A DNA stretch of 57,920 bases, from contig VXTU01000114.1 in NCBI GenBank assembly GCA_009837285.1, positions 1 to 57,920 on the forward strand, read 5' to 3'. Under the pieces are notes generated by a model, which saw nothing but the letters and a program-made list of their open reading frames with translations, had not been told where the DNA came from and did not search any database. The DNA is from Chloroflexota bacterium. GTDB lineage: Bacteria; Chloroflexota; Dehalococcoidia; UBA2979. A program made the position numbers and the translations under genes. This document shows, in pieces, positions 1 through 44,192 of this stretch. The first letter of the stretch is position 1, and each line of letters starts with the position of its first letter.

Positions 1-177
1 GGCTACCGCGGCGGCGGTGGTGGCGGCTACGGCGGTGGTGGCGGCGGTGGCCGCGACTACGGCGGCGGCGGTGGCGGTGGCCGAGGCGGCTACGGCGGCG
101 GCGGCGGTCGCGACTACGGTGGCGGCGGCGGCGGTGGCCGAGGCGGCTACGGCGGCGGAGGCCGCGACCGCTACTAG
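1..177 (+). CDS. 3' end of a gene encoding a Gly/Arg/Tyr-rich tail, as found at the C-terminus of small RRM-type RNA-binding proteins; the 5' part lies outside the window
   Basis: Frame 1 reads GYRGGGGGGYGGGGGGGRDY / GGGGGGGRGGYGGGGGRDY / GGGGGGGRGGYGGGGRDRY, then TAG at 175-177. It is absent from the ORF track because there is no start in the window. A hairpin follows at 221-248. Confidence 0.45.
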   Translation, partial: GYRGGGGGGYGGGGGGGRDYGGGGGGGRGGYGGGGGRDYGGGGGGGRGGYGGGGRDRY

Positions 178-2790: not shown

Positions 2791-3552
2791 TCAGCCCGAC
2801 CGCACGGCCACGTGCAGCGCCACCGTCCCAAGGCCGAACGTCCGCACACGCTCGCCCTCGAACCCCGACGCTTCGAGTCGCCCCGACAGCTCGTCGACGG
2901 ACATGAAGTGCTCCGCCGAGACCGGCAGGTAGGAGTAGGCGTCGCTGTGCCCGCCGAACATGCGCCCCAGTAGCGGCACGACGCGCGCCAGGTGGAAGCG
3001 CTTGAACGGCGCCAGCAGGCCACCCTCGATGCGCGGGATGTCCAGCACCGCCAGCCGCCCGCCCGGCCGCAACACGCGGTGCGCCTCCGCCAGCAACCCG
3101 CCGACATCCGGCACGTTGCGCATCACGAACGCCGCGCACCATGCGTCGGCCGCTCCGTCTGCGAGCGGGAGCCGCAGCCCGTCGCCGTGCACGAACGCGA
3201 CGCTCGCAGCGCCTCGCTCCGCCGCCTTGCGGCGCGCGATCGGGAGCATGGGCGCCGCGAAGTCCACGCCGAGCACGGCGCCCGCGCCGGCCCGCGCGCA
3301 CGCCAGCGAGAGGTCGCCCGTCCCGCACCCCACGTCGACCACGCGGTCGCCGGGGCGCACGAGGGCGCGCGCGGTGGCAGTGCGCCAGGCGTGGTGGCGG
3401 CCACCCGTCATGATGGTGTTCATGAGGTCGTAGCGCCCGGCGATCTCGCCAAAGATGCGCCGCACGTACCCCGCACGGTCCGCCGAGGGGTCGTACAGCC
3501 CTTCGACGCCCGCGGGCGCGTCTCGTCGCTCAGGTGGAGGTGTGCCGCTCAC
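2791..3552 (-). CDS. ubiE: Demethylmenaquinone/ubiquinone C-methyltransferase (UbiE/MenG family)
   Basis: RIFGEIAGRYDLMN, SAM motif VVDVGCGTGD, C-terminal YSYL...S motif; 253 aa. Confidence 0.85.
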   Translation of the reverse strand: MSGTPPPERRDAPAGVEGLYDPSADRAGYVRRIFGEIAGRYDLMNTIMTGGRHHAWRTATARALVRPGDRVVDVGCGTGDLSLACARAGAGAVLGVDFAAPMLPIARRKAAERGAASVAFVHGDGLRLPLADGAADAWCAAFVMRNVPDVGGLLAEAHRVLRPGGRLAVLDIPRIEGGLLAPFKRFHLARVVPLLGRMFGGHSDAYSYLPVSAEHFMSVDELSGRLEASGFEGERVRTFGLGTVALHVAVRSG

Positions 3553-3608: not shown

Positions 3609-4684
3609 GTGCGTAGTACGCATGTGCTGACGTATACTGCGCTGCGCCAGACGGCACTCCCCGCCGGAAGCACCATCGCAGCGATGCCGCTTCGCCTCGT
3701 CCCCTGGTCCCCCGAGTACGGCAGCGGCATCGAGGCCGAGACCGACGCTGCCGCAGACGACGGCGCGTCGCTGGTCGAGGCCGACTTCGAGGGCTCGTGG
3801 CGTGCGATCCGCCCGGCCGCCGCAGCGCACCCAGCTGTCCAGATCGTCGACGGCGTCCGACGCGTCGAGGCCCACGCGATAGACGACGGCAGCGACGGGA
3901 CCATGGCCTTCGGCCTCTTCGGGTCGTACGCGGTGGGCGTCGTGCGCTGCGAAGGGCAGCGCGCGCACATCCCCGACAGCGAGCGCGTGCTGCGCGTACG
4001 CCGCCGCTACCTGCAGACGGGCGGCGAGGCCGACGACCGCACCGTCGCTGTCGGCGACGCCGAACTGCACTTCCGCGCCGAGCTCCCCGCTGGAGCTCAG
4101 GCGCCCGCCGACCTCATCGCCGCGCTCAACCGGCTGATGTTGGACGAAGAAGCGCGGCTCGCCGAGGAACTGTCGGAGGACGACTCGACGCTCACGATCG
4201 TGGACGGCCCGCTCCGGTTGCGCGCGGCGGGTCCCCGCGTGGTCGGCTACGTGAAGCGCACGCACCGCTGGTACATCGGACCGGACCGGTTCGGCCTGCT
4301 CGGCACGCTCGCGGTGGGGGAGCGCACGCCGCTGTTCCGCATCGCCGAGAACGACGGGCAGCGCGACCGGCTCGCGTGGTACCTGCGCCTCGCCGACATG
4401 GGCACGCAGTATCACCAGCTGTCGGGCATCGTGCGCCTGGAGACGCTGGGTACGCTGCCACCGAGGGATGCGGGCGCGCTCGCCGACCAGACGGCGCTGG
4501 TGCTGCCGCGACTGGCGTCCTCGCCGATCCGCGACCCTCGCGCTCCGCAGAACCTCACCCCCGTCGGCGCGCTCGAGCAGTTGCTGACACGTCGGCTCGG
4601 CGACCGGCTGTGGATCCGACGCCGCATCGCGGCGGCGCTCGAACCCGCGTCCACCACGTTCGCGATCGCCGCGGAGGCCTCGTG

Positions 4685-4685
<1 letters not shown>
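3609..4685 (+). CDS. nurA: NurA-like 5'-3' nuclease
   Basis: NurA-type motifs IVDGVRRVE and TLTIVDGPLRL, plus VGYVKRTH. GTG at 3609 is preceded by AGGGGA; an alternative ATG lies at 3684. The stop overlaps the herA start (TGATG). Confidence 0.6.
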
Positions 4686-6426
<1,741 letters not shown>

Positions 6427-6430
<4 letters not shown>

Positions 6431-7626
6431 GGCTGCTCCACACCGCCGACTGGCACGTCGGCCGCACCATCCGCGGCCGCAGCCGCGTACCGGAGTTCGA
6501 GCGTGTGCTCGCCGAGGTGATCGACATCGCCCGTCAGGAGCAGGTCGAGGCGATGCTCGTCTGCGGGGACATCTGGGACCACCACGCACCGTCGGCGGAG
6601 TCGGACCGGCTCGTGTTCGAGGCGCTGCGCGAGTGCATCGGCCACGGCATCCAGGTGGTGCTGCTGGCCGGCAACCACGACAACCCGCGCAAGCTCAAGG
6701 CGCTCGGCCTGCTCTCGGAGCTGCTCGGCGTGCAGACGCAGTGGGAGGTGCGACGGCCGAACGCCGGTGGCGTGCTCGCCATCGAGGGCCGCGACCACGT
6801 AGCACGCATCGCCGCCGTGCCGTTCATCACCGAGGGCCGCTACGTGGACGCGGCGGCAATCATGGGCCTGCAGGAGGACTGGGTCAGCGCCTACGCCGAC
6901 GGCGTCGCCGAGATCCTGCGTGCCGCATCCGCCACCTTCGACGCGACCACGGTCAACATCCTCGCCACGCACATCTTTGTCGACAACGCGCGCATCGCCC
7001 GCGTCGACGGCTCCGAGCGCAAGCTCCACATCGGCCAGACCTACGGCGTGACCGCAGCCAGCCTGCCCTCGACGCCCCAGTACATCGCGCTCGGCCACGT
7101 GCACGAGCCGCAGGACATCCTCGACGCGCCGGTGCCGACGGCGTACAGCGGCTCGCTGCTCCAGCTCGACTTCGGCGAACGTGGCCAGCAGAAGGTCGTG
7201 CGCATCATCGACGCCGAGCCGGGCAAACCGGTGATCCCGACCAGCATTGAACTCACGAAGGGCCGCCCGCTGGCCGAGCTGCGCGGCACGCTCGACGAGG
7301 TGCTCGCCCAGGCCGACGACGCGGGAGACGCGCACTTGCGCGTCCGCCTCGATGTCGAGCGCCCCGAGCCGGGCATCGCGGAGCGCGTGCGCGAGGCGCT
7401 GCCCAACGCGGTCGACGTGCAGCTCGAGTACGAAGCGCCCGAGGACGAGGAGAGCGTCGAGGCCATCGGGCACCTCAGCGCCGCCGAGCTGTTCACGCGC
7501 TACTACCAGTCCACGCACGGCGCCGACCCCGCGCCGGCGCTCATCGGGCTGTTCGAGGAGCTGCTCGCCGAGGGCGACGAGGCGCGCGCGGCGGAGGTCG
7601 CCGGCGAGACGGCGGCGGTCCCGTGA
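6427..7626 (+). CDS. sbcD: Exonuclease SbcD / Mre11-family phosphoesterase
   Basis: Motifs LLHTADWHVG, CGDIWDH, LAGNHD, ATH and GHVH. GTG 6427 overlaps the herA stop (GTGA). Confidence 0.9.
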
Positions 7627-10600
7627 GGCCGCTTCGCCTCGAGGTGCGCGGCTTCACCTCGTTCCGGGAGCCTGCCACGCTCGACTTCGAGCATCGGCGG
7701 CTCTTCGCCATCACCGGGCCGACAGGCGCCGGCAAGTCATCGCTCCTCGACGCGATGACGTGGGCGCTGTACGGGCAGGTGCCGCGCGTCGGCCGCGAGA
7801 CCCGCCAGCTCATCACGCACGGCGCGAAGGCGATGGCCGTCCAGTTCGAGTTCAGCGTGCGTGGCGACCGCTACCGCGTCAGCCGCCAGGCGCCCGGCAA
7901 CCTCGGCGCGCGGTTGGAGCAGCAGCGCGCCGACGGCGCGTGGGAGCCGCTCGAGGACCGCGCGCGCGAGGTCACTCGCCGTATCGAGGACCTCCTCGGG
8001 CTCGATTTCGCCACGTTCACCAAGACCGTGCTGCTCCCGCAGGGAGCCTTCGACACGTTCCTGCGCGGCGACGAGCCGCAGCGCCGCGACATCCTCACGC
8101 GCCTGCTCGGCCTCGAGCGTTACGTTCAGGCAGGGCAGGCGGCGAACAGATCGGCGTCTAATTCCCGCCGCGCCGCTGAGGTGCTGCGTGAGGAGATCGA
8201 GCGCCTCGATGCTGCAACGCCCGAAGCGATTGCCGGGTTGGAGCGCGGGCACGCCGCCCTGGCGGCCCACTTCGAGGTGCTGGACGCTCGCACGGGCCTG
8301 CTCGTCGCACTCGCTGACCATGCCCGCGCGACTATCGAGGCCGAGTCAGCAGCGGGTCGCGCCGCAACCGCGAGCGCCGAGGCGACCCGGGACGCGGAGT
8401 CCGCCCGTGACGCCCTCGCCCGCGACGAGCAGGGCCGCGCAGCGTCGCGCGACGAGCGCGACCGCCTCGACGCGGATCGGGCCGCCGTCGGCTACGACGA
8501 GGCCGAACACCGCCGCCTCGAACGCGAGACGCAGATGCTCGACCAGCGCGAGGCCGCGCGGCGCGCGGTCGACGCAGCAGAGGCGGAGCAGTGCCGCGCG
8601 GTCGAGGCCGCTGAGCAGGCTGCCGAGGAGGCAGCCCGGCTGGGCGGCGAGACCGACAGCGCGGAGAGAGCGCGCGCGCAGGCCGAGGTCGCGAGCCGAA
8701 CCGCCCTCGACACCCTCGCCGCAGCCGCAGCCGCGGCACTCGCCACCGAGCGCGAGTTGGGCGAGGCGGCGAATGCCGCCGACGACCGGCGCGTGTCGGC
8801 AGAGCTTGCCGCCGCCGAACGCGACGAGGAGGCACGTCGCCTCACAGCACTCGACGAGCGGCTGAGCGCACGGCAGGAGGTCCTCGCGGCCGCCGGGCGC
8901 GAGCACGACCAGGCGACCGCGGCGCAGACGGCGGCTCAGGGTGCCTCGGACGCCGCAAGCGAGCGGCTGGGCGAGGCGGAGGAACGACGCGCCGAGCGCG
9001 CCGCAGCGCTCGACCTGGCGCAGCGGCAGGACGCCGCGATGACGCTGCGCCAGGGACTGCAGCCGGGTGACCCATGCCCCGTCTGCGGCGAGCCCATCAG
9101 TCACATCGACCCGCACATCCCGCCCGAGCTCGACGCAGCCCGTACAGCCCTCGATGCCGCCGAGGCGTCGCTGCGCCATGCACGGAACGAGCAGTCGGCA
9201 GGAGCAACAACCCTCGGCGCAGCCGAGGCGGACGCTACACGTGCGGCGTCCGCAGTCGAACGCGCGAACGCCGACCTCGACGCCATCCGCGCCGAGGCCG
9301 CGCAGTCCGGTGTCGACGCCGACGCGCTCGCTAAGGCGGCCGAGAAGGCGTCGGTCGCCGCCGAGGCCGAGCGCGCTCGGGCCGCCGCGGCGGTGGCGGA
9401 GCGCGACCGTGCAGGGGGCGCCGCGCGCAGACTCGGCATGCTCCGCGCATCGATCGGCGACGCCCTCGCCGGCCTCGACGCGGCTGAGGCGGAGCCCGGC
9501 GAGCCCGAGGGCGTGCACGCCGACCTCGACGGAGCGATCGAGGAGCACCGGGCAGCGAGCGCCGAGGCTGCTGCAGCGTCGGAACGCGCTCGCACTGCCG
9601 CCGAGCGCTCGCGTGAGGCCCATGCGAACGTCCAGCGCGCCGGCGAGCGGCGCAGGCGCGCGGACGCCGAGTTGGACCGCGCGCGCGAGCACCTCTCCTC
9701 GCTCGGCGACGCGGATGTCGACGCCGATGCGGTGCGAGCCGCCCTCACCGCAACGCAACAGCAGGCCGAGCGCCACCGCAAGATCGAGGCCGCCCTCGCC
9801 ACCGCCGCGCAGGAGCTGGCCGCGGCCGACGCGCGTGTCGAGGCCGCCGGCGCGGCGCTCGCACGCGCGGATGCCACCTCGACGCGCCGGGCTGACGAGG
9901 CGACCGGGGCGCTCGCCCTGGCCGAAGACGCGCGCCGGGGTCTCGCCGAGGCCTGGGCTGCTGCCGCCGTCGAGGGTGCGCCCGACGCCACGAGAGCCCC
10001 TCGGCTCCTCGACGAGCACCGCGTGGCGGTCGCCGCGTGCGAGCGCGAACGTGACCTCGCCGCGCAGCGACTGGAGACCGCGCGCGCCGACGCCGAGCGC
10101 GCCGAGCAGATGCGCGCCGACGCCGCGACGTACGACGGCAACGCGGAGCTCGCCGACGACCTCGCCCACGAGCTGCGGCGCGACCGCTTCATCGCCTACG
10201 TGCAGCGCGAGGCCATGTACCTCCTCGCCGCCGACGCGGGCGAGCGGCTGCTCGCGCTGTCGAGTGGGCGCTACCGCCTGGTCGTGCGCGACGAGGCGTT
10301 CTGGGTCGTCGACGGCTTCAACGGCGACGAGCGGCGGTCGGTGAAGACGCTCTCCGGCGGCGAGACGTTCCTCGCCAGCCTCGCGCTCGCCCTCGCGCTG
10401 TCCGAGCGGCTGCCCGAGATCGCCGGGCGCGGCGGGGCGATGTCGCTCGAGTCGCTGTTCCTCGACGAGGGCTTCGGTGCGCTCGACCAGGACTCGCTCG
10501 ACACGGCCATCGGCGGCCTCGAGACGCTCGCGGGCGGCCAGCGCCTCGTGGGCGTGATCTCGCACATCCCCGAGGTCGCCGAGCGCCTCCCTGACCGCGT

Positions 10601-10694
10601 CGAGGTGGTCAAGAACGGAGCGACCAGCCGCCTCGTCACACCGGGCGCCGTCCCCGAGGCCGGGGTCGAGCCCTCGCTGACCGTCACGCCGTAA
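7623..10694 (+). CDS. sbcC: Exonuclease SbcC / Rad50-family SMC-like ATPase
   Basis: Walker [10 protein letters not shown], long Ala/Glu/Arg coiled coil, zinc hook CPVCGEP, signature LSGGETF, Walker [10 protein letters not shown]-loop ISHI. The start overlaps the sbcD stop (GTGA). Confidence 0.9.
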
Positions 10695-37857: not shown

Positions 37858-38145
37858 CTACCCGACGCGCTCGTTGATCTCGGCGGCGAGGCGCATGTCG
37901 TAGTCGCTGATGCCACCGACGTCGTGCGTGCTGAGCGCGATGTGGACGCGGTTCCAGGTGTTGGTGAGGGTCGGATGGTGGTTCATGCGCTCGGCGAGGA
38001 TGCCGACCTGCGTGATGAGCCCCATGGCCGCCACGAAGTCCGCGAGCTGCACCTCGCGCACGATCTCATCGCCATCGCGGCTCCACCCGTCGAGCCCGGC
38101 GAGCGCCTCCTCGATCTCGGCGTCGTTCAGCTTGTTCGCCGGCAT
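37858..38145 (-). CDS. phhB: 4a-hydroxytetrahydrobiopterin (pterin-4-alpha-carbinolamine) dehydratase
   Basis: 95 aa, ...ERMNHHPTLTNTWNRVHIALSTHD motif; ATG 38145 follows GAGGTG. Confidence 0.85.
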   Translation of the reverse strand: MPANKLNDAEIEEALAGLDGWSRDGDEIVREVQLADFVAAMGLITQVGILAERMNHHPTLTNTWNRVHIALSTHDVGGISDYDMRLAAEINERVG

Positions 38146-38348
38146 GTGGCACCTCGTTCCGCCGCGTTGTGGGGGGAGCGTAGGAGGGCGGGGGCGAGGG
38201 ATGCAAGGCATTGGTCAGCTACGCGACACTGGCACCGTGATACGTGAAGTTGTGGATCTCCTACGTCAGAAATGACTTGTACTACGCGATATGTCGTGCT
38301 ACCTTCCCAACATCCCGAATGTGGTCGGAGCGCCGAAGGAGGCAACCC

Positions 38349-39512
38349 ATGCGACTCGAACTCCCCGGAATCGGATACCAGCAGGGCAACCGGCAGATGG
38401 TCGTGACTGCGCTCAACCCGGTCGCCCTCGTGAAGACCGTGACGAGCCCGGACCGGTGGAACCCGCTCGGCAAGCAGCCGCACGGCAATCGCCCGCAGGA
38501 CAAGGGGCACCGGGAGGGCATTGCCCAGTACCTCGAGGAGGAGGAGAACTTCGTCTTGGGCGCCGTGGTCCTCTACGCCTCCCCGCGCGATGCGATGTTC
38601 GAGCCGGCCGAGGGCGACTCGAACGGCCCAGTGCGCCCTGGGACCCTCAAGCTGGAGTTCGGGGCGGAGTTCGACGTCGGTGACGGCCAGCACCGTATCG
38701 GTGCGTACAGCGACGTCATGGCCCGCCACGACGAGGACGGCGACCCGATTCTTGAGCGCCTTCGCGCGTCAGGGCAGCCCGCCGTCGTCGTGATCGACGA
38801 CGAACCCCTGCACCGCGCCCAGGACTTCACCGACCTCCAGCGCAACGCGAAGCCGCCCTCCAACTCGATCGCTCTCAGCATGGACCGGCGTCAGCCGGTG
38901 AACCGGATGCTGATCGACCTCGTCCAGGATGCGGCACTCCCGGTCTTCGACCTGGGGGAGCGCGTTGAGTTCCTCAAGGACTCGCCGGGGAAGCTCTCGG
39001 CGAAGCTCTACTCCTTCAACACCATCCGCTACATGAGCGGTACCGCGTTGATCGGCACTGGCCAGCGGAGTGCGCGTGGCTGGGACAAGGCCGTCAACGC
39101 TGCGATCGAAGAGCACCCCGACGCGTCGCGGGCGGGACTCGTTGCATTCTGGCAGGCCTTCGCTGCGCTCCCGCCGATCGCAGCGATCATCGGTGGCGAG
39201 TCGACCCCGGCGAAGCTCCGTGAGGAAACGCTGCTGGGTGCCGCCGGGGTGCTGTACGCGCTCGCGGCTGCGGCGCACGAGGCCTCGGACGTCGGGATGG
39301 ATCTCGGAGAGGCCGTTTCTGCCTTCCAGGGCGTCAACTTCGCGCGCCCCGCGCCGCCGCCGCAGGGCTCCCCGCTGACCCTCGACGACAGCATCTTCGT
39401 CGGCACCCTGATCGATGCCGAAACGGCGAAGGTCGGATCGGGACGCCCTTCGTGGGAGGCGGCTGCCGACCACCTGCTCGAGGCGATCAAGCAGATGCGG
39501 GCGGCGGCATAG
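38349..39512 (+). CDS. DGQHR-domain protein (DndB-like, ParB/Srx-superfamily fold)
   Basis: Literal motif FDVGDGQHRIGAY and downstream QDFTDLQRNAKP. ATG 38349 is preceded by AAGGAGG. The ORF-track start 38244 lies in an AT-richer leader. Confidence 0.8.
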   Translation: MRLELPGIGYQQGNRQMVVTALNPVALVKTVTSPDRWNPLGKQPHGNRPQDKGHREGIAQYLEEEENFVLGAVVLYASPRDAMFEPAEGDSNGPVRPGTLKLEFGAEFDVGDGQHRIGAYSDVMARHDEDGDPILERLRASGQPAVVVIDDEPLHRAQDFTDLQRNAKPPSNSIALSMDRRQPVNRMLIDLVQDAALPVFDLGERVEFLKDSPGKLSAKLYSFNTIRYMSGTALIGTGQRSARGWDKAVNAAIEEHPDASRAGLVAFWQAFAALPPIAAIIGGESTPAKLREETLLGAAGVLYALAAAAHEASDVGMDLGEAVSAFQGVNFARPAPPPQGSPLTLDDSIFVGTLIDAETAKVGSGRPSWEAAADHLLEAIKQMRAAA

Positions 39513-39537
39513 CCGCCCGCATCTGAGCGTCAGCGCC

Positions 39538-39882
39538 GTGGCAATCGACGCCAACATTAGCCTGGAGACGCGGGCCCTCGTACTCGATCTGTATGGGTCG
39601 ACGTGCCAACTGTGCGCCCGTGGTCCCGGGGATCCCGATCGCGTCGATCAGAGTCGGCTTACGCAGCTCGTTGTCGCCCTCGCGGACGAGAGCCTCCCCG
39701 GAGGCGACGACGCCCGCTGCAACCTCAATGTCGTGTGCACGGCCTGCGAGACGAGCCCACCAACGGAGGCGGCGTCGCCAGGCCTCGTGGCACTGATGGG
39801 CGAACTCCGGCGTGCCACGATCGCTGACCAGCGCAGAGCGCTGGAGTGGCTGCAACGCCGAGCCCAGCAGGGACGGGCTTGA
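39538..39882 (+). CDS. Small CxxC...CxxC protein resembling an HNH (beta-beta-alpha-Me) finger that lacks both catalytic His residues
   Basis: STCQLC ... LVVALADESLPGGDDARCNLNVVCTACE follows the HNH layout (CxxC ... [H]H ... GG.D...NL..C..C[H]) with A/L and E in the His positions. A GTG start at 39538 is assumed. The stop overlaps the next ATG (TGATG). Confidence 0.4.
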   Translation: MAIDANISLETRALVLDLYGSTCQLCARGPGDPDRVDQSRLTQLVVALADESLPGGDDARCNLNVVCTACETSPPTEAASPGLVALMGELRRATIADQRRALEWLQRRAQQGRA

Positions 39883-40724
39883 TGCCGCGGCTTGGCACCA
39901 CTGATGCCAACGCCGAGTTAGCCGTGCGGATGTATGGCGAACTCCTCGACGAGCACGGCTGGGGCCTCGACCGCGCGTGGCTCGCGATCTCATCTCTGCT
40001 AATGACGTGCGACTTGTGGTGGGACGGGGACTGGCATCCATTCCACGACGCTCCGGTGTTGCGTGAATCCAACGTCTATGGACTGACCCGAACAGGTGAC
40101 CCAAATCCAGCCCTGACCGATGCGTTCCGCGTGAAGGAGCGGCTGGCGGTGGGGTTCGCCGTCGCGGACGCTGATGTTTGCGCGACTCTTGGGCGCTTTT
40201 TCCGCGAGCCTCGCCTTCTGGGACTCCAGCCGAACAACCCGCGCGGCCACGCGTTCCGCTCCCTTGTCGCGGAGACGCTCGCGCGCTTCGGTGACCCGGC
40301 GCTCGGCGTGGCGGAGGCGATCTCGCCACATGACGTCTTTGCCGGCTTCGACCGCTTCGCCGCCGGACGCGGTAGCCGAATCGACATTGTCGTGCGGCGT
40401 GGCGACCACCTCGTCGCGCTCATCACCACGCACTGGACGTACCGCCACACGCGCGTCGGAATTCTCCGCGATGCGGAGGCTTACATGCCTGCGGTGCGCG
40501 TTCTGAACGCCGACTGCCGGTTCTACGGCGTCACAGCCGAGTTCGGGACGGCGCGGCTGAAGAAGGTCATCGCGGAGACGGCACCTGTGATGCGGAACGC
40601 GGTGATCGACCGCTTGGTGCACCTCAACCCGGAACTCCCTGGCGACCTGATCGGCAAGAACGGGGAACTGCGCGAGATGTGGTCGCTGGCGCAGATGGTC
40701 GAGGACTCGTACAACTGGCACTGA
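39882..40724 (+). CDS. Hypothetical protein, possibly with a restriction-endonuclease-like fold
   Basis: 280 aa. GHAFRSLVAETL helix, then RIDIVVRRGDHLVALITTHWTYRH, loosely reminiscent of the E...D...(D/E)xK layout, although the (D/E)xK triad itself is not evident. Confidence 0.5.
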   Translation: MPRLGTTDANAELAVRMYGELLDEHGWGLDRAWLAISSLLMTCDLWWDGDWHPFHDAPVLRESNVYGLTRTGDPNPALTDAFRVKERLAVGFAVADADVCATLGRFFREPRLLGLQPNNPRGHAFRSLVAETLARFGDPALGVAEAISPHDVFAGFDRFAAGRGSRIDIVVRRGDHLVALITTHWTYRHTRVGILRDAEAYMPAVRVLNADCRFYGVTAEFGTARLKKVIAETAPVMRNAVIDRLVHLNPELPGDLIGKNGELREMWSLAQMVEDSYNWH

Positions 40725-43059: not shown

Positions 43060-43133
43060 GTGTACGTATCGCATGCCCCATCGCGCGAGGCGCCCTCGGT
43101 CGCCACGTGCGTGGCCGCTCCCACAGCGACGAA

Positions 43134-43802
43134 ATGGCGGCGTCAGCGATGCAGGTCGACCCAGAGACGCTGACCCGGCGTTCGGAGCTCGGGCGGCGGC
43201 TGCGTGAGCTTCGCCGCGACAGCGGAATGACGCAGGCGGAACTCGCGCGTGCGGCAGGCCTCGGGCAGGCCTCGCTCTCGAACTATGAGAACGCCAGGCG
43301 CGACATACATTTGGTTTCGGCAGTGCGAGTCGCGGCTGCACTGGACGTCACGCTTGGCGAGCTGCTGGAGGTGCCACACATCCTCGTGGTCCACGATCCG
43401 GATCTCGCGAGGGCGGTGCGCATCCTGGCCGACTCGGAGGAGCTGCTCACGTCGATCGCCGGGCCGCGCCCGCCGCCTCCACCGAGGCCGCCGAAGGCTG
43501 ACGCCGAAGCGCAGCAAGGCGAGGTCGAGGCCACGGAAAGCGAGACCGAGGAACCGGTGAGCGAGGCCGAAGCTGCGGATAGCGAAGCTGAGGCGCGCGA
43601 CGGTGAGGCCGCGGCCACCGACAGCGCGGCCGAAGCCACGGACAGCGAGGCGGCCGCCACGGACGCCGAAGGCGGTGCGACGGACGGTGAGGTCGAACCC
43701 ACGGACGCCGAGCCGCAAGACACTGAGGTGGAATCCGTCGCTGACGCGCCAGTGGAGAGTGACGCCGAGGCGGAGACAACGGACGCTGGTGCGGAAGCGT
43801 AG
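43134..43802 (+). CDS. XRE-family HTH regulator with a Pro-rich hinge and a long acidic repeat tail
   Basis: HTH region GMTQAELARAAGLGQASLSNYENARR; PPPPPRPP; six heptad-like ..ATD.E repeats. Start uncertain (43107, 43134 or 43149). Confidence 0.7.
   Translation: MAASAMQVDPETLTRRSELGRRLRELRRDSGMTQAELARAAGLGQASLSNYENARRDIHLVSAVRVAAALDVTLGELLEVPHILVVHDPDLARAVRILADSEELLTSIAGPRPPPPPRPPKADAEAQQGEVEATESETEEPVSEAEAADSEAEARDGEAAATDSAAEATDSEAAATDAEGGATDGEVEPTDAEPQDTEVESVADAPVESDAEAETTDAGAEA
43606..43731 (+). repeat. Six degenerate 21-bp tandem repeats inside the XRE gene
   Basis: gaggccgcggccaccgacagc / gcggccgaagccacggacagc / gaggcggccgccacggacgcc / gaaggcggtgcgacggacggt / gaggtcgaacccacggacgcc / gagccgcaagacactgaggtg. 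Confidence 0.75.
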
Positions 43803-43817
43803 GTGTCGCGATCATGA

Positions 43818-44192
43818 ATGGGCCGCACACGACCAATGGAGGGACAGACGATCACTATGGGGGATTCCGAGACGCTGAGCCGGCGCGTCGAGATTGGGCG
43901 ACGGCTCCGTGAAGCGCGGCGGCGACGGGGACTCTCGCAGTCCGAGGTCTCCCAGACAGCCGGTATCACGCAAGCGTCCCTTTCCAACTATGAGACCGGC
44001 AAGAGGGAACTGCCCCTGTCCACGATGATGAACCTGGCCGCCGCGCTTGACGTTCCGCTCGGGGACTTGATGGAGATATCCGACGTGATCATCCTGCGGG
44101 ACTCGAGGCTCGCCGACGCCGTGCGCGCGCTCACAGACTCGCCCGAGTTGCTGGAGTCGGTGATCAACGGCGAGCCCGTCGCGGTTCCCTGA
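43818..44192 (+). CDS. XRE-family HTH regulator, tandem paralogue of 43134-43802 without the acidic tail
   Basis: GLSQSEVSQTAGITQASLSNYETGKR. Collinear with the upstream paralogue through ...DSPELLESV. Start uncertain (43818, 43836 or 43857). Confidence 0.7.
   Translation: MGRTRPMEGQTITMGDSETLSRRVEIGRRLREARRRRGLSQSEVSQTAGITQASLSNYETGKRELPLSTMMNLAAALDVPLGDLMEISDVIILRDSRLADAVRALTDSPELLESVINGEPVAVP

Follow-up and report, generated by a model that had tools for sequence, protein, structure and literature searches.

The 57,920-nucleotide (nt) stretch of contig VXTU01000114.1 analysed here (assembly GCA_009837285.1, from a Chloroflexota bacterium of the Dehalococcoidia, lineage UBA2979; hereafter the window) contains three tightly packed genes, g1, g2, and g3, that appear to be a remodelled Type II restriction-modification (R-M) cassette. 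g3 encodes a protein that seems to derive from the CCGG family of restriction enzymes, g2 encodes a degenerate HNH zinc finger, and g1 encodes a DGQHR/DndB-family protein. Our best reading of the trio, which we hold tentatively and to which we give close to an even chance, is that it is a methylase-independent nuclease effector under a DndB-type autorepressor and that it acts in defence, either in a Type IV-like manner or as a repressed toxic effector. The original prediction for this locus was a compact defence cassette. Its domain calls hold up, and a role in defence is plausible; the derivation of the trio from an R-M slot that was remodelled, and a probable regulatory function for g1, go beyond it.

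The locus is arranged as follows:

37858-38211, minus strand: pterin-4a-carbinolamine dehydratase gene (Pfam, 4.7e-30), upstream of the leader
38212-38348, plus strand: AT-richer leader with promoter and operator-like array of phased TACG cores
38349-39512, plus strand: g1, DGQHR/DndB-family protein of the ParB/Srx superfamily, 387 amino acids (aa), ATG start, matches Pfam DndB and TIGR03187
39538-39882, plus strand: g2, HNH-derived Cys4 zinc finger (CQLC...CTAC), 114 aa, GTG start
39882-40724, plus strand: g3, PD-(D/E)xK protein derived, as judged from its fold and remote relatives, from the NgoMIV/CCGG family, 280 aa
40731 (GTG start), 6 nt past the g3 stop: class-III aminotransferase gene

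g1 has a ribosome-binding site (GAAGGAGG at 38335-38342), and the protein contains the DGQHR motif within FDVGDGQHRIGAY. g2 and g3 overlap at TGATG, and this junction is kept in the related loci L009, L026, L027, and L035. The GC content of the leader is 0.547, versus a mean of 0.701 for the window (standard deviation 0.046 across 137-nt windows), which places it in the lowest 0.1% of 137-nt windows. The AT-richer leader and the three packed same-strand genes thus lie where the original prediction placed them. It had also stated that the partner genes of known DGQHR systems are missing, and we found no dndCDE or other dnd genes, no ssp genes, and no dpd genes in the 58 kb.

Origin of the trio in a restriction-modification slot

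We found 133 homologs of g3, and an exhaustive profile search returned only 134 cluster representatives among 1.84 billion proteins. Neither g2 nor g3 matches any model in Pfam, NCBIfam, or PADLOC, which agrees with the earlier failure to match the trio to a named system; PADLOC also had no matches for the g3 relative P0054 or the g2-g3 fusion P0059. A possible nuclease fold had been suggested for g3. The AlphaFold2 model of g3 (pLDDT 92) has a sole significant neighbour in the Protein Data Bank (PDB), which is PspGI (3bm3; Foldseek E = 2.1e-4, probability 1.00, TM-score of ~0.4). A sequence search of the PDB with the g3 profile gave nothing useful. Pfam's NgoMIV_restric does match remote full-length relatives of g3: P0363 at 1.6e-6 (28.0 bits, with a cut-off of 23.2) and, more weakly, P0343 at 5e-5 and P0336 at 2.6e-3. 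All three of these matches cover the segment S-x-K-W-S-x-R-H-D-R...E-C.

The signature of the CCGG family is a permuted PD...K...(D/E) site and an R-(D/E)R motif that reads CCGG and opens the next helix (PMC6344858). By position, we assign these elements in g3 to D168, position 184, R188-x-D190-R191, and position 197. Besides the fold, as seen in the match to PspGI, g3 shares with the CCGG-family enzymes (NgoMIV, Cfr10I/Bse634I, PspGI, Ecl18kI, and EcoRII-C) the order D168, 184, R188-x-x-R191 at the start of the next helix, and an acidic residue at 197. The relatives of g3 carry K/R-x3-R-H-D-R...E, with lysine at position 184 in remote relatives and arginine in close canonical ones, and they are encoded directly after C5 methylases and Vsr. 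In contrast, the window's g3 has histidine at this catalytic-lysine position (H184) and R188-H-T190-R191 instead of R-x-D-R, along with D168 and D197. It also differs from the family in having no linked methylase or Vsr, in being coupled to a dead HNH protein, and in having a DGQHR gene in front.

These substitutions characterize a clade. Across the canonical set (99 sequences from several phyla, down to 43% identity), R184, R188-H-D-R, D/E193, and E197 are invariant. In the trio-type clade (18–24 sequences), position 184 is His or Gln, 190 is Thr, His, Arg, Ser, Ala, or Gly, 191 is Arg or Pro, 193 is Gly, and 197 is Asp. Changes at the 46 positions with a conservation of 97% or more in the canonical set are confined to R161, S162, R184, D190, E197, D193, and, in part, R191. 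E62, N119, H123, R126, D138, E145, D168, R173, W185, R188, E220, and R225 are kept invariant in the changed clade, which is monophyletic and nested among methylase-linked members from the Dehalococcoidia. The DNA-reading head was thus remodelled in a targeted way, without general decay. The canonical relatives, all of which are labelled as hypothetical, would be an unannotated family of NgoMIV-like restriction enzymes.

The genomic contexts of these relatives are those of R-M systems. A C5-methylase open reading frame (ORF) lies immediately upstream of the g3 relative in 17/19 species-representative genomes. It usually overlaps the g3 relative by 8 nt and is often preceded by a 141-aa Vsr. A relative from the Verrucomicrobiota has an N4/N6 methylase directly upstream, and one from the Chloroflexota has a C5 methylase and Vsr. 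On plasmid pB of Kovacikia minuta (locus L037, NZ_CP083584.1, 1701-4837), a C5 methylase and a g3 homolog directly follow an integron integrase; a TIR-domain gene is nearby, and the endonuclease homolog is labelled hypothetical in RefSeq.

Related Dehalococcoidia have the conserved gene order SDR, TPR, alpha/beta-hydrolase, a variable slot, aminotransferase, helix-turn-helix (HTH), AAA, and VWA. The slot contains vsr, the C5 methylase gene, and g3 in loci L013, L015, L016, L019, and L025. In L008, it contains vsr, a short methylase gene, a gene for a winged HTH (wHTH)-HNH protein, and g3. In the window and in L009, L026, L027, and L035, it contains the DGQHR gene, the dead HNH gene, and g3. 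Because the same order is found in relatives that have vsr, the methylase gene, and g3 in the slot, the adjacency of the aminotransferase gene reflects synteny; the original prediction had viewed this linkage as unexpected and as a sign of possible co-transcription. The genes of the trio are found together in at least 10 assemblies; beyond the five loci just named, contigs of matching size put g1 and g3 together in at least 8. The trio is inherited vertically at one fixed syntenic slot in one lineage of Dehalococcoidia.

Some of these slots have been disrupted or have gained genes. In L019 (2610-5154), the g3 gene is split by an insertion of ~1.7 kb that carries two ORFs, and in L025 (8001-8841), it is frameshifted; in both, the methylase is intact. 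R-M systems usually decay in this direction, and the window's clade shows the opposite. Some trio loci carry extra small genes between g3 and the aminotransferase gene: in L009 (8850-9943), an ORF of 90 aa and, on the minus strand, a second paralog of the pterin dehydratase (53% identity), and in L026 (7891-8628), two ORFs (103 and 123 aa) that match nothing in Pfam.

g2 has only 13 homologs. Four cysteines (C23, C26, C67, and C70) are invariant in their alignment (A2), and the C-terminal helix is strongly conserved (LRRATxxDQRxALEWLQR). The nearest relatives outside the trio, from L008 and P0253, support the original description of g2 as a degenerate HNH protein: they are ~190 aa long, with a wHTH-like region at the N-terminus and an intact HNH (GHI(V/I)DRS(H/K)GG...NLRA(V/L)C..CN), and both pass Pfam's HNH model. 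PADLOC labels the relative in L008 as REase_II, and P0253 begins on the stop of a C5 methylase gene. g2 lacks the N-terminal wHTH, and it lacks the catalytic His/Asn: it has LVVALADES...CNLNVVC where L008 has GHIVDRSHGG...SNLRALC. Because the window type, L009, and the fusion P0059 do not share the same losses, there was more than one such event. In L035, an in-frame deletion has shortened g2 to 66 aa, with the C-terminal helix and the TGATG overlap retained. Fusions of g2 and g3 are found in P0059 (7 member sequences, 2 contigs) and P0060. Because of the translational coupling and the fusions, g2 and g3 probably act as one unit. We also considered whether g2 is a remnant of a ScoMcrA-type partner, and rejected this: the similarity spans only a generic HNH core of 28 residues, and g2's real relatives are the methylase-linked wHTH-HNH proteins.

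Comparison of the window's genes to those of L009, L026, and L027 gave ratios of nonsynonymous to synonymous substitution rates (dN/dS) of 0.11–0.18 for g1, 0.24–0.35 for g2, and 0.20–0.23 for g3. All three genes are under purifying selection. Between L009 and the window, identity is 38% for g2, 72% for g3, and 86–93% for the flanking genes, which suggests allele exchange or fast evolution within the trio. These results bear on the idea that the trio is just the non-functional decay products of a dying R-M cassette. The frameshifted and interrupted endonuclease genes of L025 and L019 and the partly deleted g2 of L035 are what this idea would predict. However, the ORFs are intact in 10 or more assemblies despite divergence to 62–87% identity, dN/dS is 0.11–0.35 throughout, conserved residues are invariant, and both the translational coupling and the promoter (described below) are conserved. 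The selection analysis largely refutes simple decay, and we consider it highly improbable.

The DGQHR protein and its leader

g1 was originally described as an orphan DGQHR protein, and the profile searches agree. It matches Pfam's DndB (PF14072) at 4.2e-34 and the DGQHR domain model TIGR03187 at 77.2 bits (cut-off 58.85). Yet it scores far below the cut-offs for the equivalog models of DndB (TIGR03233, 42.1 bits vs. 328) and DpdB (NF041060, 17.7 bits vs. 300). Its only PADLOC matches are DndB and DpdB, and no protein of the trio matched DUF262 or DUF1524 in the Pfam and PADLOC scans. With the AlphaFold2 model of g1 (pLDDT 90.9) as the query, the fold search found no significant neighbour in the PDB: the top match was the DUF262 domain of BrxU (E = 0.09), and the ParB N-domain and Srx matches were also not significant. 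A sequence search of the PDB with g1 gave nothing useful.

The leader contains TACG cores at 38220, 38241, 38262, and 38283, at a spacing of exactly 21 nt. This is the sole cluster of four TACG within 70 nt in the whole window, and the repeated element is approximately (G/C)CTACG(C/T)(C/G)R. The leader of L009 has three cores with the same 21-nt phasing, those of L027 and L035 both have two cores in forward and two in inverted orientation, and that of L026 has an 18-nt inverted repeat that bears a TACG core. The (G/C)CTACG(C/T)(C/G)R element is also present, with 21-nt phasing, upstream of g1 relatives (46–63% identity) in Acidimicrobiia, Kitasatospora, and Streptomyces, and the leader on a Rhodococcus plasmid has a GCTACG palindrome. 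Overall, 8/10 leaders of the subfamily have at least one same-strand pair of cores at exactly 21 nt, versus 1.1% of 548 background windows. Among the pair spacings of 45 nt or less (n = 28), 14 are exactly 21 nt and 4 are 42 nt.

These cores abut the promoter or fall inside it. A simple promoter scan found nothing at its threshold, and we identified the promoter through conservation among the trio loci. In the window, it consists of a -35-like TTGTAC (38277-38282), a 17-nt spacer, and a -10-like TACCTT (38300-38305). The -35 columns and the TAnnnT columns of the -10 are kept across all five trio loci, three of which have TTGACA-N18-TAnnnT.

The DndB of Salmonella acts as a repressor, and its own promoter contains the two TACG-N10-CGTA boxes to which it binds (PMC4507180). 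Because the phased TACG array overlaps a conserved promoter, and given this precedent, we infer that g1 autoregulates the g1-g2-g3 operon. Like Salmonella's DndB, which is an ATP-modulated repressor of the dnd operon, g1 belongs to PF14072, is the first gene of its operon, and has sites with TACG cores over its own promoter. Unlike DndB, g1 is not accompanied by dndCDE, either in the window or in its relatives (no dnd genes were nearby in the 12 contexts examined), and it is far under the equivalog cut-off. Also, its sites are mostly direct repeats with 21-nt phasing instead of two N10 palindromes, and the downstream genes encode apparent nucleases.

g1 may also bind nucleotides. DGQHR domains are related to the DUF262 NTPase of GmrSD (PMC4619093), and a DndB-like protein is reported to bind ATP and GTP (bioRxiv 10.1101/2025.10.10.680097). 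We propose that g1 is an autoregulatory protein that binds both DNA and nucleoside triphosphates (NTPs). GmrSD, BrxU, SspE, and DndI are modification-sensing Type IV systems in which a ParB-like DUF262 NTPase is combined with a DUF1524 HNH. The trio likewise has a DGQ[HQ]R protein of the ParB/Srx superfamily along with an HNH-type module, and no methylase, and BrxU is the best fold neighbour of g1, albeit a non-significant one. The trio differs in having separate genes, a dead HNH, a PD-(D/E)xK protein as the candidate nuclease, and no match to DUF262 or DUF1524.

Small autoregulated DNA-binding genes, with operators over the promoter, are found 5' of varied nuclease and defence operons; these include the controller (C) proteins of restriction enzymes and the BrxR and CapW repressors. 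g1 differs from these in its fold (ParB/Srx, not HTH/WYL), its much larger size (387 aa), and its probable NTP-binding site.

In Streptomyces, g1 relatives are located on integrative conjugative elements (with integrase, FtsK/TraB, SpdB, and GntR). In 3 of the 4 contexts from Streptomyces and Kitasatospora, the next gene after the g1 relative encodes a ScoMcrA-type Type IV HNH enzyme; the one in L006 matches PADLOC's mREase_IV with 1149 bits. The placement of this subfamily upstream of Type IV enzymes on integrative elements supports a role for g1 as a regulator. In L028, a g1 relative is found alone within a defence island. In a mobile region from a metagenome (L031) and on the Rhodococcus plasmid (L036), the g1 relative is followed by an unannotated protein of 740–789 aa (L031, 7507-10325; L036, 7266-9635). 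These two proteins share a GHKL-ATPase-like N-box (LIELITNSDDA or LIENVTNMQDA), and they could be another type of effector that is paired with this family of regulators.

Many orphan DndB homologs are annotated as "DNA sulfur modification protein DndB" even though no dnd genes are nearby. Our results offer a concrete and testable role for them, as autoregulators with a phased GCTACG operator in front of nuclease effectors.

Proposed function of the trio

We propose the following history. The ancestral slot would have contained vsr, a C5 methylase, and a CCGG-family endonuclease, the ancestor of g3. The endonuclease would have lost its CCGG-reading R-x-D-R head, as well as the Lys/Arg at the catalytic position, and become translationally coupled to an HNH protein (g2) whose catalytic residues were lost later. 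A DndB-family gene (g1) would have taken the place of vsr and the methylase gene. For a cell to lose a linked methylase without harm, the endonuclease must already have ceased to cut host sites, and a single targeted loss of R-x-D-R at the base of the clade fits this endonuclease-first order. The slot would then record an escape from addiction, in which a restriction enzyme outlived its methylase by way of a remodelled head, coupling to a dead HNH, and a DndB-type regulator.

In the present-day module, g1 would bind the 21-nt-phased (G)CTACG sites over its own promoter and repress g1-g2-g3. The g2-g3 complex would be a nuclease effector, and it would need no cognate methylase because the old target is no longer read. 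It might act on foreign or modified DNA, as Type IV enzymes do. Alternatively, it might be a toxic effector under tight repression, set free once control by g1 fails. The kept metal ligands and family-invariant residues, the purifying selection, the coupling, and the fusions argue that g2-g3 still acts on DNA.

A different view is that the trio was domesticated and has no role in defence. The g2-g3 complex could bind DNA with its nuclease activity attenuated or gone, or it could be a nuclease for repair or for particular DNA structures that succeeded Vsr. In either case, it would be retained for a housekeeping task and expressed under the control of g1. This would account for the fixed and vertically inherited place among housekeeping genes on the chromosome, for the lack of a defence island nearby, for the H/Q at the catalytic Lys/Arg position of g3, and for the missing catalytic residues of the HNH. 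On the other hand, the metal-binding residues D168, E145, and D197 and all other family-invariant residues are kept in the clade, which suggests a retained catalytic centre. Also, g2 and g3 evolve faster than the flanking genes, with allele exchange, which is typical of genes in conflict, and g1 relatives adjoin bona fide restriction enzymes on mobile elements. We think that domestication is unlikely, but it deserves serious consideration.

Alternatively, g3 (with g2) could be an ordinary restriction enzyme whose methylase is encoded elsewhere in the genome, with g1 serving as its controller protein. Just 58 kb of the genome is in view, the array over the g1 promoter resembles the operators of C proteins, and the H/Q-type g3 of L008 is still preceded by vsr and by a short gene that resembles C5 methylases. 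In the window, we found no C5 or amino-methylase using a profile of 16 linked C5 methylases, two single queries, and motif scans; the only S-adenosylmethionine-dependent methylase is UbiE/MenG-like (2791-3549, minus strand). Furthermore, the CCGG-reading acidic residue is gone and position 190 is free to vary in the clade, which suggests relaxed constraint rather than a new fixed specificity, and cells normally die when a linked methylase is lost, unless the endonuclease has changed beforehand. A methylase in trans seems to us quite improbable.

Several points weigh against a methylase-independent effector under a DndB-type autorepressor, which is the reading that we favour. Three of its elements are inferred: that g1 binds DNA (from a cis-element and a distant homolog), that g3 retains some nuclease activity, and that the trio acts in defence. 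With His or Gln at the catalytic-lysine position, g3 may no longer be a nuclease. ScoMcrA, which is located on SLP1, does not need other SLP1 genes for restriction (PMC3009677), so DGQHR proteins may be paired with nucleases for regulation alone, or by coincidence. The view is limited to the 58-kb window, and a methylase may be encoded elsewhere in the genome. We saw no avoidance of CCGG, CCWGG, CCNGG, GCCGGC, or other sites in either the trio loci or the methylase-linked loci; the only depletion in the site statistics was of CTAG, which is generic. The window contains 577 CCGG sites, and an unregulated CCGG cutter would not be tolerated without methylation. Finally, the trio is fixed in the ordinary chromosome of one lineage, outside of any defence island or mobile element.

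Strictly taken, the trio is outside the classes of DndB, DpdB, active HNH, and CCGG-family enzymes; it appears to descend from active HNH and CCGG-family enzymes and to be regulated in the manner of DndB. More speculatively, the trio could be a new methylase-independent system for restriction or abortive infection that arose from a converted Type II enzyme. g1 would sense a signal and would control a dead-HNH/PD-(D/E)xK nuclease at the level of transcription, and perhaps directly as well; this nuclease would have swapped the reading of CCGG for another discriminator, such as modified DNA. DGQHR proteins of the subfamily with 21-nt-phased GCTACG operators would then be a general class of regulators for nuclease effectors on actinobacterial mobile elements, including those of the ScoMcrA type. 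We regard this broader proposal as possible, with the balance of probability leaning against it.

Other genes in the window

The idea that the trio sits in a defence island fared poorly, and we rejected it: the surroundings are an ordinary chromosome. PADLOC's matches to mad3 and LmuB are due to SbcC, which is encoded beside SbcD, and its HTH and control-protein matches are to generic XRE proteins. The genes concerned, together with the gene before SbcD, are:

3797-6427: 877-aa protein before SbcD, no Pfam match, weak P-loop matches to HerA/mad8
6370-7623: SbcD (Metallophos and SbcD_C)
7623-10691: SbcC, 1023 aa, SMC-like
43107-43802 and 43818-44192: two tandem XRE-type HTH genes

The tandem XRE genes explain the PADLOC matches to control-protein models, capH, and mad8. 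The first of them has a long acidic tail of Glu/Ala/Thr/Asp repeats, and an HTH gene is kept at this position in all of the syntenic genomes. A PADLOC scan of the whole window also gave matches to mad2 (2.9e-21), several RmrA models (~1e-10), and SduA (3.5e-7), which lie outside the 20 genes that were scanned individually.

At the edge of the window (1-176), there is an open-ended ORF with a TAG stop at 174-176 and a repetitive tail that is rich in Gly, Tyr, and Arg (GGYGGGGGGRDYGGGGGGGRGGY...). Its DNA has CTACGG repeats every 24–33 nt, and the ORF resembles the low-complexity tail of an RNA-binding protein.

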